Assembly: GCA_041309685.1 (NCBI GenBank)
Contig: JBFYZD010000202.1
Coordinates: forward strand, 1 to 30,199
From: Gemmatimonadales bacterium
GTDB taxonomy: Bacteria > Gemmatimonadota > Gemmatimonadetes > Longimicrobiales > Gaopeijiaceae
DNA: 30,199 nt
Direction: 5' to 3'
Positions 5,202 to 14,724 of this stretch are shown in pieces (position 1 is the stretch's first letter; each line of letters begins with the position of its first letter). A program made the translations under genes and the position numbers. A model generated the notes under the pieces. That model saw nothing but the letters and a program-made list of their open reading frames with translations, had not been told where the DNA came from and ran no database searches.

Positions 5202-7784
5202 ATGCCGTCCCCGAATCCGGACCGGTTGGCCGTCGTCCACAGCCACCTCGGCCCCGACGCGCTCCTGCTCGCCGAACTCAACGGCACCGAAGGCCTTTCC
5301 AGGCTCTTCTCCTTCGAGTTGAGCCTCCTGTCGGAACGACGGGACATCGCCTTTTCCGACGTCGTGGGGAAGGGCCTCACGGTCGCCATCGAGGTGGCGG
5401 GCAAGGAACACCGCTACCTCCACGGCATCGTCTCGAGCTTCTCCCAGAAATGGATCGCCGAAGCCGACGGAAGCGGGTTCGACCTTTCCCTCTACACGGC
5501 CCGGTTGGTGCCCCGTCTCTGGCTCCTGACCCGCTCCCGGGCCTCCAGGATCTTCCAGGACCTCTCCGTACCGGAGATCGCCCAGCAGATCCTGGGGGAA
5601 AGGGAGATCGGGGACGTCCGGTTCGACCTGGAATCCGCACGGTACCCCAAGAGAGAGTACTGCGTCCAGTACCGGGAGACGGAGTACGAATTCCTCGCCC
5701 GCCTCCTGGAGGACGAAGGCCTTTACTACTACTTCGAGCATGAGGAAGGGAAGCACACCTGGGTTCTGGCCGACGGGTCGTTCGCGCACAAAGCCTGTCC
5801 CGTGCTGGGCTCGGCCCGCTACCGGGCCGGCGCCGGGGACCTGCGGGAGGGGGCCGTCATCACCGACCTGGTCATGGGCCAGCAGATCAGGAGCGACCGG
5901 TTCGTGCTCAAGGACTTCGACTTCCAGCAGCCCGAGCTGGACCTGAGCGTGACCGTCGATGGCCGAGCGCCCGGCCCCACCGTGCCGGGAGGCCGTGAGA
6001 TCTACGACTACCCCGGGACGCACCTCACGCTGGAACGGGGTGACCACCTCTCCACCGTGCGCATGGAAGAGGAGGACGCGCAGGTCACCACCCTCAGCGG
6101 CACGAGCCTTTCCGGCGCCTTCTCCAGCGGGTTCCTGTTCACTCTGGAGAGCCACGGCCGGGCGGAGCTGGACGGCAAGCAGTTCCTGCTGACCTCCATC
6201 GAACACCGCCTCCGGCAGCCGGGGCTTCCCACCCAGTGGGCCTCCCCGGGCGCCGAGGCGGACCCCGACACGCCCCGCTACCGGAACCGCTTCCAGTGCA
6301 TCCCGTCCGGGACGCCCTTCCGCCCCCAGCGGGTTACCCCCAAGCCCACCGTGCAGGGCCCCCAGACGGCCATCGTGGTCGGACCCAAGGGCACGGACAT
6401 CTACACCGACAAGTTCGGGCGGGTGAAGGTCCAGTTCCACTGGGACCGGGAGGGCAGGGGGAATGAGGGTAGCTCCTGCTGGGTCCGGGTGAGCCAGGTA
6501 TGGGCAGGGCATGGATGGGGGGGGATGCACATCCCCCACGTGGGGCACGAGGTGATCGTGAACTTCCTCGAGGGCGACCCCGACCGGCCTCTGATCACGG
6601 GACGCGTCTACCATGCCGGGAACCCTCTGCCCGAGACCCTGCCCGACAACCAGCGCAAGAGCATCCTGCGGGACGACTACGGAAACGAGCTCATCTTCGA
6701 CGCCAGCCCCGGCGACGAGCACATCCGCCTGCACAGTCCCCATCACAACTCGACTCTCACGCTGGGCCGGAGCTTCGGCGGCTTCTGTGCGGATGACCAT
6801 TTCGAGGCCCAGGGCGGCAACATGGTGGAGCTCGGGATGGGCAATAAGTACGAGGCCTTCCTGGGCGCCGCCCTCGCCCTCGCCGCCGGGATGTCCACCG
6901 AGGCTTCGATCGGGCTGGCCCACGAGTTCAGGGCCGGGGGGAAGTTCGACTTCCTGTTCGGGGTGAATGCGGGCATCCACATCGGGCCGGAGTTCAAGTA
7001 TCACAAGGGCCCGACGGTGCAGAACAGCGACTCGACCATCGCCAGCGTCTCGAAGCAGCACAACATCCTCAGCGCCAGGGAGAAGGTGAACCTGATCGGA
7101 GGTGCCGGCACGGCATCCCCGGCCACCTCCATCATCGAGGCCGACGCGAAGCGGGTTTCCATGTCCATCGGGGAGAACAAGGACCCCGACGCGAACGCCA
7201 TCACCGAGGCGGAGAAGTTCCTGGCCGTTCTCATTCCCGGGATCGTCGGGGGGCTCTCCCTCGTCCTCATGGGGGCATCCACGGGATTCGCCGAAGCCGA
7301 GGACGTCGCCACGAAGGCCGCGGGGCTCACGGTGGTGACCACGCTGGAAGCGGCCCTGATCCTGGCCGAGCTGATCGGGTATGCGGTTCTCTGGAAGCAT
7401 TTCGAGGACAAGGTGGCCCCGGTCAGTCATCGCGATGATCCCCGGGACAAGGTCAATGCCGTGGTCACCCTGGAGGAGAAGGGGTGGGTGGACGTCTTCG
7501 GGACGAAGAGGGTCACGGTGGGGGTGGAGGGGGACATCCTGGCCCGGCTGGGAAAGGGGGGGAGGCCTCCGGTTCCGCCCAAGGGGCCCCAGCTCGAGAT
7601 CAAAGGGGAATCGATCTCGATGAGCGGGTCGGGGACGGCTCCCGGACGGTCCGCCCTTTACGTGGACAACACCGGGATCTGGGCCACCACCCAGAAGAAG
7701 TTCGACGTATTCGCGGACGGCCGCATCAGCTTCAAGTGCAGTGACTTCACCGTGAATGGGAAGAACCTGCAGGTCCTCCCGTAG
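5202..7784 (+). CDS. vgrG: Type VI secretion spike protein VgrG (TssI), 860 aa
   Basis: N-terminus ...LLLAELNGTEGLSRLFSFELSLLSERRDIAFSDVVGKGLTVAIE...EDEGLYYYFEHEEGKHTWVLADG matches the VgrG/gp27 signature ('LSELFxFEL', 'EDEGIFYYFEH'). A gp5-like OB-fold and C-terminal beta-helix region follows (…GRVYHAGNPLPETLPDNQ…). ATG at 5202 is preceded by aGGGtag. Confidence 0.9.
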   Translation: MPSPNPDRLAVVHSHLGPDALLLAELNGTEGLSRLFSFELSLLSERRDIAFSDVVGKGLTVAIEVAGKEHRYLHGIVSSFSQKWIAEADGSGFDLSLYTARLVPRLWLLTRSRASRIFQDLSVPEIAQQILGEREIGDVRFDLESARYPKREYCVQYRETEYEFLARLLEDEGLYYYFEHEEGKHTWVLADGSFAHKACPVLGSARYRAGAGDLREGAVITDLVMGQQIRSDRFVLKDFDFQQPELDLSVTVDGRAPGPTVPGGREIYDYPGTHLTLERGDHLSTVRMEEEDAQVTTLSGTSLSGAFSSGFLFTLESHGRAELDGKQFLLTSIEHRLRQPGLPTQWASPGAEADPDTPRYRNRFQCIPSGTPFRPQRVTPKPTVQGPQTAIVVGPKGTDIYTDKFGRVKVQFHWDREGRGNEGSSCWVRVSQVWAGHGWGGMHIPHVGHEVIVNFLEGDPDRPLITGRVYHAGNPLPETLPDNQRKSILRDDYGNELIFDASPGDEHIRLHSPHHNSTLTLGRSFGGFCADDHFEAQGGNMVELGMGNKYEAFLGAALALAAGMSTEASIGLAHEFRAGGKFDFLFGVNAGIHIGPEFKYHKGPTVQNSDSTIASVSKQHNILSAREKVNLIGGAGTASPATSIIEADAKRVSMSIGENKDPDANAITEAEKFLAVLIPGIVGGLSLVLMGASTGFAEAEDVATKAAGLTVVTTLEAALILAELIGYAVLWKHFEDKVAPVSHRDDPRDKVNAVVTLEEKGWVDVFGTKRVTVGVEGDILARLGKGGRPPVPPKGPQLEIKGESISMSGSGTAPGRSALYVDNTGIWATTQKKFDVFADGRISFKCSDFTVNGKNLQVLP

Positions 7785-7815
7785 GCACTCCACCCGGCCC
7801 CTGCGAGGAGAATCC

Positions 7816-13877: not shown

Positions 13878-13968
13878 GGGCCGGGCGGGAACGCATCCGT
13901 CCGATTCGGTGTTTGAACCCAACCCCGTGGAACAGGCAGCCTCGGGTCCACACCGAATCGGGCGCATC

Positions 13969-14724
13969 ATGAAGACCGGCTTTGAGTACGAGATCCAGGA
14001 CCCCCATCGCTCCGTCGTGGTCGACATGGCCTACCCCGGAGCACCGGTCCTCCTGGCCTTCGGGGGGATCGCCGGAAGGATGGCGGCCATGCCCCCCTTC
14101 GAGTTCTTCCGGCTCACCCACCGGTTGGCCGTCAACAAGGTCTACCTCCGGGACCTCGATCAATGCTGGTACCATGCCGGCCTCCGGGGGGTCACTCGGG
14201 ACATCACGGGCACCCTCGCATTCCTGACCAGCCTGGTCAGCGAATGCCGCACGGACACCGCCGTGGTCGTTGGAAGCTCCATGGGGGGATACGCCGCGCT
14301 CCTCTTCGGCTCCCTGATGCAGGCCAGTGCGATCCATGCCTTCTCCCCCCATGTCTTCCTGGGGGACGGACGGTCCATTCGCAACAAGGAACGCCTCAGG
14401 GCCCTCCATGAGAACTTCTCGGACGAGTATTGGGACTTGAACGGGGTCCTCGAGCCTCCCCAGAGGCCAGGAGGCCGCCACATCTATTTCGACTCCACGA
14501 ACGGAAAGGACCGACGCCAGGTGAAGCATCTGGAGGACCACCCCCACCTTCGCCTCCATCGCTTCAGGGGGGGCGGTCACAACCTGGTGAAGTACCTGAA
14601 GGCCTCCGGGGAGCTGGAGAAGGTGGTCACCTCATCGCTCCGCAACGTCTCCTACGAACCCAGGCGAGACATCCCCCTGCGCCGGCCTCTCCTGGACCGG
14701 ATCCTGGGCCGACGGCTCCCCTGA
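13969..14724 (+). CDS. Small alpha/beta-hydrolase (esterase/lipase-like, GxSxG); candidate T6SS cargo effector. Alternative GTG start at 13909.
   Basis: …PVLLAFGGIAG…AVVVGSSMGGYAALLFG… has a nucleophile elbow G-S-S-M-G. A later Asp (YFDSTNGKD) and His (RGGGHNL) sit in canonical Ser-Asp-His order. It is the last co-directional gene of the vgrG block. No signal peptide. Neither candidate start has a good SD. Confidence 0.6.
   Translation: MKTGFEYEIQDPHRSVVVDMAYPGAPVLLAFGGIAGRMAAMPPFEFFRLTHRLAVNKVYLRDLDQCWYHAGLRGVTRDITGTLAFLTSLVSECRTDTAVVVGSSMGGYAALLFGSLMQASAIHAFSPHVFLGDGRSIRNKERLRALHENFSDEYWDLNGVLEPPQRPGGRHIYFDSTNGKDRRQVKHLEDHPHLRLHRFRGGGHNLVKYLKASGELEKVVTSSLRNVSYEPRRDIPLRRPLLDRILGRRLP

Follow-up and report, generated by a model that had tools for sequence, protein, structure and literature searches.

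A probable Class III Tvp spike module, with an interrupted tvpB gene and no neighbouring type VI secretion core genes, on a 30-kb contig

DUF2169 genes strictly co-occur with the VgrG and DUF4150 spike genes of type VI secretion systems (T6SSs) (Sachar et al., J Biol Chem 2025, PMC11883445). DUF4150 has been renamed "PIPY", after a P(I/V)P(Y/F) motif that stands in place of PAAR, and the PIPY tip is chaperoned by DUF2169; one arrangement, "synteny type C", combines a DUF2169::pentapeptide gene with a pentapeptide gene, DUF3540 and DUF4150, and accounts for ~37% of DUF2169 genes in complete genomes (PMC11883445). In Serratia marcescens this arrangement was named the Class III Tvp system (Monlezun, Earl & Coulthurst, EMBO J 2026, PMC13373197). 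Here we describe a block of genes on the forward strand of contig JBFYZD010000202.1, at positions 5202-13877, which is very likely a Class III Tvp module of this kind (synteny type C, also the TagAB/TagB/TagC/PAAR type), that is, an operon building one T6SS spike. The window analysed is this one complete NCBI contig of 30,199 bp, and any absence of genes reported below covers these 30 kb only. Exact-sequence look-ups of its PAAR and TvpAB proteins turned up no other contig.

In Serratia, VgrG1 assemblies fire only with TvpAB, TvpB, TvpC and Paar1, each of which is required, and pull-downs recovered a TvpC-TvpAB-TvpB-Paar1 pre-complex as well as a mutually exclusive VgrG1-TvpAB-TvpB-Paar1 complex; the resulting two-step mechanism, in which TvpC serves as the template for a TvpAB-TvpB-PAAR cap that passes to VgrG, is backed by genetics, pull-downs and mutagenesis (PMC13373197). 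TvpC is predicted to be a VgrG mimic, in which an OB-fold is paired with a beta-prism and gp27 is missing, and Class III systems are accompanied by small toxin-less PAAR proteins and long VgrGs (PMC13373197). The sole VgrG1-specific activity in Serratia is membrane depolarisation, neutralised by Vai1, which is encoded beside vgrG1 and co-purifies with VgrG1, and the phyla recorded for TvpA are Acidobacteriota, Myxococcota, Planctomycetota, Thermodesulfobacteriota and Pseudomonadota (PMC13373197). A preliminary description of the present DNA had held that islands of this flavour had no assigned mechanism in any organism and that the locus might represent a new effector-delivery sub-system. Neither statement stands, since Class III Tvp has been dissected in Serratia marcescens (PMC13373197) and the arrangement is the known synteny type C, with Acidobacteriota already among its carrier phyla (PMC11883445, PMC13373197). 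The mechanism of Class III Tvp, or TagAB-TagB-TagC-PAAR, modules was published in 2025-2026, and the window holds a divergent, plausibly acidobacterial, copy.

Seven open reading frames (ORFs) lie on the forward strand between 5202 and 14724, separated by successive gaps of 31, 9, 24, 46, 13 and 31 nucleotides (nt), and their domains were assigned by Pfam and NCBIfam hidden Markov model (HMM) searches, in which all domain assignments of the module exceeded the curated cut-offs. The VgrG, DUF2169, pentapeptide, DUF3540 and DUF4150 domains named in the preliminary description were all recovered in this way, and its gap range of 9-46 nt and its logic of spike, adaptor and tip were borne out. Its count of seven genes was one too many: the third and fourth ORFs share a frame and are split by an in-frame TGA at 11917-11919, which leaves six genes, one of them interrupted. 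All genes of the block carry the G+C pattern at third codon positions (GC3) typical of genuine coding DNA, in a window whose G+C is 64-73% per kilobase; codon-position G+C served to tell true genes from shadow ORFs. The individual ribosome-binding sites that had been proposed are present before tvpAB, tvpC and paar, as GAGGAG or GGAGGAG Shine-Dalgarno sequences, and are missing before the fourth ORF (ATG at 11944) and before the hydrolase gene that ends the series.

A sigma-70-like promoter candidate, TTGCCG-18-TAGAAT at 5117-5146 on the forward strand, lies upstream of vgrG and is the sole promoter-like site found within 4900-15000. Its hexamers are kept (TTGCAG / TAGAAT) 5' of vgrG in the closest relative, L059 (~112-141), where the other non-coding DNA has diverged, and we infer that the site acts as a promoter. 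No internal terminator-like sites were found between the block genes; together with the short gaps and the one conserved promoter-like site, this gives the block operon-like features.

The block opens with vgrG (5202-7784, 860 amino acids (aa)), recognised by TIGR03361 (538 bits), Phage_GPD (293 bits) and Phage_base_V. Its product consists of a gp27/gp5 core (aa 1 to ~515) and a long C-terminal extension, contains the strings LFSFELSLL and YYYFEH that had been reported for it, and is 68% identical to the VgrG of L059, which also has 860 aa. The second gene, tvpAB (7816-10332, 838 aa, forward strand, preceded by GAGGAG), matches PF09937 (DUF2169) with 306 bits and PF00805 with 163 bits: DUF2169 occupies aa 24-307, ~250 residues without a Pfam match follow, and pentapeptide repeats occupy aa ~560-838. 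Its residues 51-277 correspond to 8vth, a solved DUF2169 structure, with an E-value of 6e-23. The interrupted tvpB (10342-12483, forward strand, 713 codons), a pentapeptide-repeat gene, is followed by tvpC (12530-13456, 308 aa, forward strand, preceded by GGAGGAG), a DUF3540 gene that matches PF12059 with 90 bits against a cut-off of 27.9. In TvpC no match to gp27/Phage_GPD was found, and hhalign aligned its aa 20-89 with the VgrG OB-fold (aa 390-472; P 6.7e-5, probability 64%), which is consistent, at the level of sequence, with the idea of a VgrG mimic. The module closes with paar (13470-13877, forward strand), encoding a DUF4150/PIPY PAAR-like tip of 135 aa, of which aa 11-117 match PF13665 (Tox-PAAR-like) with 125 bits; its PIPY motif stands at aa 31-34 (nt 13560-13571) in the context …SPVPIPYPNIG…. 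The tip is 73% identical to its homologue in the relative L001 and 48% identical to a Burkholderia T6SS-5-type DUF4150 protein, and a domain search found no toxin or other extra domain in its 135 aa.

Compared by domains and by the text of PMC13373197 rather than by sequence, the Class III system of Serratia marcescens Db10 (VgrG1, TvpAB SMDB11_2247, TvpB 2248, TvpC 2249 and Paar1) has the same domain set in the same relative order. For the Serratia system, too, no effector apart from the spike has been reported, and membrane activity is suspected to reside in the spike itself. The Serratia module, however, stands at the 5' end of the main T6SS cluster, whereas that of the window is detached; vai1 and 2246 lie between vgrG1 and tvpAB in Serratia, whereas the 31-nt gap of the window holds no gene; and the window tvpB is interrupted by a TGA. 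The hydrophobic stretch indicated for Serratia VgrG1 comprises its last 26 residues (PMC13373197), while the window VgrG has an internal hairpin.

Burkholderia T6SS-5 (VgrG-5, TagAB-5, TagB-5, TagC-5 and PAAR5) shares the same five-gene order, and its accessory and tip proteins are homologous to those of the window. On the B. savannae plasmid pMSMB0266 (L061), RefSeq gives the order tssF-tssG-tssH-tssI(VgrG)-TagAB-5-TagB-5-DUF3540-DUF4150-tssJ-tssK…, and the window proteins match those of B. savannae with E-values of 4e-35 for PAAR (48% identity), 8e-36 for TagB, 2e-17 for TagAB and 4e-12 for TagC. In Burkholderia a full cluster surrounds the module, with tssH on one side and tssJ on the other, unlike in the window, where no core genes stand beside it; the target of VgrG-5 is eukaryotic host membranes. 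Among the Class I and II Tvp systems (Agrobacterium Tap2-Tde2, Pseudomonas aeruginosa PA0096-PA0098-Tse7 and Vibrio parahaemolyticus VP1398-VP1415), the feature shared with the window is that a dedicated VgrG carries a DUF4150/PIPY tip domain, which has a DUF2169 chaperone as its partner. These systems have a single-domain DUF2169 and a toxin-fused PIPY, without pentapeptide-repeat proteins or DUF3540 (Class II has a short DUF6484), whereas the window combines a repeat-fused DUF2169 with TvpB, DUF3540 and a tip that lacks a toxin. A match on a B. contaminans plasmid was dropped as a comparator, being a Class I module (DUF2169 and a polymorphic toxin). What sets the window apart from the reference systems is therefore its detachment, a double-size and interrupted tvpB, a longer TvpC, the lack of a Vai1-like gene and a VgrG-5-like hairpin.

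Relatives were collected with a TvpAB scan that kept one genome per species and yielded 53 loci, whose gene order was mapped by tblastn. These loci span Acidobacteriota, Planctomycetota, Verrucomicrobiota, Desulfobacterota, Gemmatimonadota, Myxococcota, Bacteriovoracaceae and Gammaproteobacteria, and the order vgrG-tvpAB-tvpB-tvpC-paar is found in essentially all of those of sufficient length (more than 30 loci, at least 8 phyla); RefSeq annotates the same order on a Pantoea piersonii plasmid. The comparative value of the locus lies in this near gene-for-gene conservation, in the fact that the module is detachable from the core cluster, in a TvpB that is, in these lineages, about twice the size of Burkholderia TagB-5, and in the internal hydrophobic hairpin of many associated VgrGs, which is similar to the one needed for the fusogenic activity of VgrG-5. 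Two variants were noted: L029 and L046 have a permuted order, with tvpC-paar upstream of tvpAB, and in L028, L040 and L053 (~10001-12400) the DUF2169 and pentapeptide parts are separate adjacent ORFs, corresponding to TvpA and a repeat protein.

HMM searches found no T6SS core domains among the other genes of the window, in line with the preliminary description, whose statement applies to an entire contig. This might suggest that the block serves a contractile injection system other than a T6SS, for example a phage-tail-like particle with a VgrG-like spike. We regard that explanation as extremely improbable, as the VgrG exceeds the cut-off of the T6SS-specific TIGR03361 by far (538 against 186 bits), DUF2169 strictly co-occurs with T6SS VgrG/DUF4150 spikes (PMC11883445), and relatives of the module lie inside canonical tssB/C-hcp-tssE/F/G-clpV clusters. 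Directly before the module, tssC-hcp-tssE-tssF-tssG-clpV is found in L001 and in the nearest named relatives, the Acidobacteria metagenome-assembled genomes L007, L008, L010 and L015. Thirty-one relatives have 3 kb or more of upstream sequence before vgrG; a co-directional core gene stands directly upstream of vgrG in 15 of them, and some T6SS core gene lies within ~10 kb in 20; the other 11 have none. The detached state of the window is one of two common configurations, and it is a reasonable inference that the apparatus served by this Class III module is encoded distally.

A departure from the relatives concerns tvpB, which is present as two same-frame ORFs, 10342-11919 (525 aa) and 11944-12483 (179 aa), both of which match PF00805 (243 and 118 bits). 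The first aligns to residues 6-488 of the single 676-aa TvpB of L001. Across the junction, the window reads …DLDAVDFRTSRI, the stop, and then KTRFILCSMKGCKLEGMDLS…, against …DLDGVDFTTTSIDKTEFILCSMKGSTFEGMDLS… in L001, and the eight "intergenic" codons KTRFILCS align with KTEFILCS of the 676-aa homologue. The eight codons after the stop are thus conserved protein sequence, and the TGA takes a single sense position. For 34 relatives the stretch from tvpAB to paar was readable, and every one of them has just one ORF between tvpAB and tvpC, of ~620-860 aa except in L038, where it is shorter (446 aa). The read-through TvpB is about twice as long as TagB-5 (354 aa), which aligns to its residues 339-710, across the stop. 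The alignment column of the TGA is variable (D/E/G/N/K/H), and its glycine in 6 of 18 aligned relatives means that a single GGA>TGA change is possible. Selenocysteine insertion or programmed recoding at the TGA was rejected, as the aligned column is never Cys. The TGA may be a nonsense mutation of recent date or else an error of base-calling or assembly, and the apparent pair of pentapeptide genes should be annotated as one interrupted gene.

The interruption bears on whether the module still works. In Serratia the pathway depends on TvpB, so a genuine stop could disable the copy in the window, which may be crippled unless the TGA is an assembly error or both halves still assemble. Taken further, the block could be a decaying relic, moved away from its T6SS cluster and in the course of being lost, with the tvpB stop as its first lesion and no apparatus left for it to arm. 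The stop lies in a gene that is one ORF in every relative read, no ribosome-binding site is available for restarting the C-terminal part, and the module is not beside core genes, unlike its nearest named relatives. Yet no other gene is broken, and all of them keep a GC3 pattern strongly typical of coding DNA; protein-level conservation persists in the codons around the stop and beyond it; one wrong base in a metagenome assembly would produce an identical picture; and the 11 relatives without core genes within 10 kb share the detached position. On balance we consider a relic rather unlikely.

By analogy with Serratia, a working Class III module would assemble as follows. A trimeric TvpC, with OB-fold and beta-prism and without gp27, would take the small hydrophobic DUF4150/PIPY tip; TvpAB would hold the tip via its DUF2169 domain and wrap the prism, and the pentapeptide protein TvpB would shut the cap in the manner of a seat belt. 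The long VgrG would then displace TvpC, and a T6SS encoded elsewhere in the genome would fire the loaded spike, with the Tvp proteins remaining inside the cell. The length (860 aa) and position of the window VgrG fit a dedicated long upstream VgrG, a type for which an extended beta-prism is expected; its C-terminal model, with a mean predicted local distance difference test (pLDDT) score of 44, is too poor to bear on such a prism.

Some observations weigh against assigning the block to Class III and to this pathway. No T6SS core gene is visible in the window, so that an apparatus elsewhere in the genome has to be assumed. The match of PF12059 is confined to aa 202-308 of TvpC (profile positions 93-199), the C-terminal half only, and the OB-fold similarity between TvpC and VgrG, at a probability of 64%, is modest. 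Finally, tvpB is interrupted, and loss of TvpB abolishes the pathway in Serratia.

As the tip lacks a toxin and the module comes without a conserved effector gene, the payload is probably the spike itself. Within the VgrG C-terminal domain, aa 672-731 (nt 7215-7394, forward strand) form a putative hydrophobic helical hairpin, followed by a conserved APVSH motif. The Kyte-Doolittle 19-residue mean reaches 2.27 at aa 673 and, in a second segment (aa 702-731), 1.4-1.8 at aa 702-713, compared with a maximum of 1.27 in the gp27/gp5 part. Helices are predicted at aa ~669-697 and ~702-737, between beta strands, at low confidence (pLDDT 56-69 in a shallow-alignment monomer model). Only 10 relatives of VgrG aa 600-860 are detectable in 1.84 billion representative proteins. 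A segment of at least 1.6 occurs in the same region in half (21) of the 42 VgrGs that are linked to Class III modules and reach 650 aa or more, and those with the hairpin come from Acidobacteriota, Planctomycetota, Verrucomicrobiota, Desulfobacterota, Myxococcota and Gammaproteobacteria. The related VgrGs share a layout of beta-prism, polar linker, helix 1, short acidic loop and helix 2, followed by basic residues, an (I/V)xP(V/A)xH motif, beta strands and a conserved …KNLxV C-terminus.

The VgrG of Burkholderia offers a precedent for such a segment. The T6SS-5-type VgrG of B. savannae (994 aa) resembles that of the window in its long C-terminal domain and in an equivalently placed hydrophobic segment (aa 645-710 against 672-731), and deletion of aa 651-697 in B. 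pseudomallei VgrG5 abolished cell fusion and virulence while Hcp secretion was kept (bioRxiv 10.1101/2023.02.09.527577). From its position and by this analogy, the window hairpin might be a membrane-active payload that the Tvp cap shields, a suggestion we put forward tentatively and consider less likely than not. Each trimer would then carry three VgrG hairpins, placed as in the Burkholderia fusion segment and shielded in the cytoplasm by the cap. It is equally doubtful, although conceivable, that the hairpin and its (I/V)xPxxH-type motif are a warhead of Class III spikes that inserts into membranes and is both ancient and widespread. If this were so, the real job of the TvpAB/TvpB cap would be to hide six hydrophobic helices per trimer before firing, and the Burkholderia fusogen and the depolarising VgrG1 of Serratia would share one mechanism, present in environmental phyla without a dedicated immunity gene. 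The occurrence of the hairpin in many VgrGs makes for a testable idea of what Class III spikes carry where an effector gene is absent.

Several points stand against a role for the hairpin. With a mean pLDDT of 44, the model of the VgrG C-terminal domain lends weak support, and to the two helices only. In a BLASTP comparison with the B. savannae VgrG-5-type protein, only window aa 3-598 align, and the C-terminal domain with the hairpin has no detectable homology. The hairpin is absent from half of the related VgrGs and from the Pantoea VgrG. Moreover, the 31-nt vgrG-tvpAB gap contains no immunity gene, which would be expected for an antibacterial membrane toxin (compare Serratia Vai1).

In a separate observation, the VgrGs of the gammaproteobacterial loci L024, L032, L033, L041 and L044 (also L031, L022 and L051) lack the hairpin, and in these loci a gene of ~205 aa with an N-terminal transmembrane helix lies directly after vgrG (~9330-10001 in locus coordinates), with a topology resembling that of the Serratia immunity protein Vai1. 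Pfam gave no DUF3192 match for the product of this gene, and its assignment as a Vai1/DUF3192 homologue was rejected. The inverse correlation between hairpin and transmembrane gene is an apparent one, seen in few and related loci.

A different payload had been put forward in the preliminary description, namely the product of the last ORF of the series, an alpha/beta-hydrolase-fold gene (13969-14724, forward strand, 251 aa, with a GSSMGG motif; a longer ORF starts at 13909). The start at 13969, that of the protein-collection entry, leaves a 91-nt gap after paar, and a start at 13909 would leave 31 nt. On this explanation the module would be a cargo module whose GxSxG hydrolase, a lipase or esterase toxin, is loaded by the adaptor onto the VgrG/PAAR tip. 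The gene is co-directional with paar, no terminator-like site lies between them, and the genes after paar differ among relatives, as effector slots usually do. A Ser-Asp-His set is also conserved: G102-x-S104-x-G106, D181 and H204 are invariant in the hydrolase family. The hydrolase fold is confirmed by an AlphaFold2 model built from 40 homologues (pLDDT 91.5) and by Foldseek, although HMM matches to alpha/beta-hydrolase families were weak. These features (hydrolase fold, GxSxG nucleophile elbow, conserved Asp and His) are shared with Tle-type T6SS lipase/esterase effectors.

Against an effector, however, the structural neighbours are generic: the best Foldseek matches in the PDB were carboxylesterases, hormone-sensitive-lipase-type esterases and S-formylglutathione hydrolases (E ~1e-7, TM-score ~0.5), and the family profile gave weak matches to PDB sequences around the nucleophile elbow, the best being SacC (E 0.002). 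Three close homologues (60-62% identity) stand in non-T6SS neighbourhoods on all three contigs read, one beside genes for a sulfotransferase and an LPG-synthase-like protein, one beside genes for an ACT-domain protein and a P-type ATPase, and one beside an M28 peptidase and DUF3179 genes, and no hydrolase homologue was found in the 53 TvpAB-recovered loci. No immunity-like, co-directional small ORF with GC3 coding character follows the hydrolase, the next gene being a convergent one for a Gate-domain membrane protein (14776-16197), and the hydrolase start, which lacks a Shine-Dalgarno sequence, is uncoupled from paar. The window hydrolase thus differs from Tle-type lipases in belonging to a family without T6SS linkage, in having no adjacent immunity gene and in being small. 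Its 251 aa lie far below the size of the characterised Tle1-4 lipase effectors. We therefore hold a hydrolase payload to be improbable: adjacency is all that speaks positively for it, and the gene is probably an unrelated, housekeeping flank outside the Class III module, which should not be labelled a T6SS effector in annotation.

Other genes were found after paar in relatives. Six loci of Gammaproteobacteria and Myxococcota, L028 (15933-16784), L039, L040, L043, L054 and L057, have there a transglutaminase-like protein (Bact_transglu_N and Transglut_core, ~270-285 aa); a macro-domain protein is present in L024, L041 and L044, and an unannotated 258-aa protein in three loci. The transglutaminase-like and macro-domain proteins could be lineage-specific effectors or accessory genes.

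Around the block, a divergent ADOP permease gene precedes vgrG, and the genes outside the block encode three ADOP permeases, a PadR regulator, the Gate-domain membrane protein, M14 and VanY peptidases, a fatty-acid desaturase, an FKBP, a flotillin-like protein and others. Between the flotillin-like and MBL-rhodanese genes, a stretch of ~0.8 kb (25490-26325) has no GC3-coding ORF and no Pfam match, and the long ORFs over it (25422-27353 on the reverse strand and 25275-26324 on the forward strand) resemble shadow ORFs. The three ADOP permeases (TIGR03434; 1-2454, 2525-5005 and 17850-20804) and the padR_acidobact regulator (TIGR03433; 17674-18006) all score above cut-offs, which makes the Acidobacteriota-like host that had been proposed plausible. 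The regulator ORF lies directly upstream of, and overlaps, the ADOP ORF 17850-20804. In the latter the ADOP model begins at residue 181, and the real start is therefore probably well downstream of 17850.

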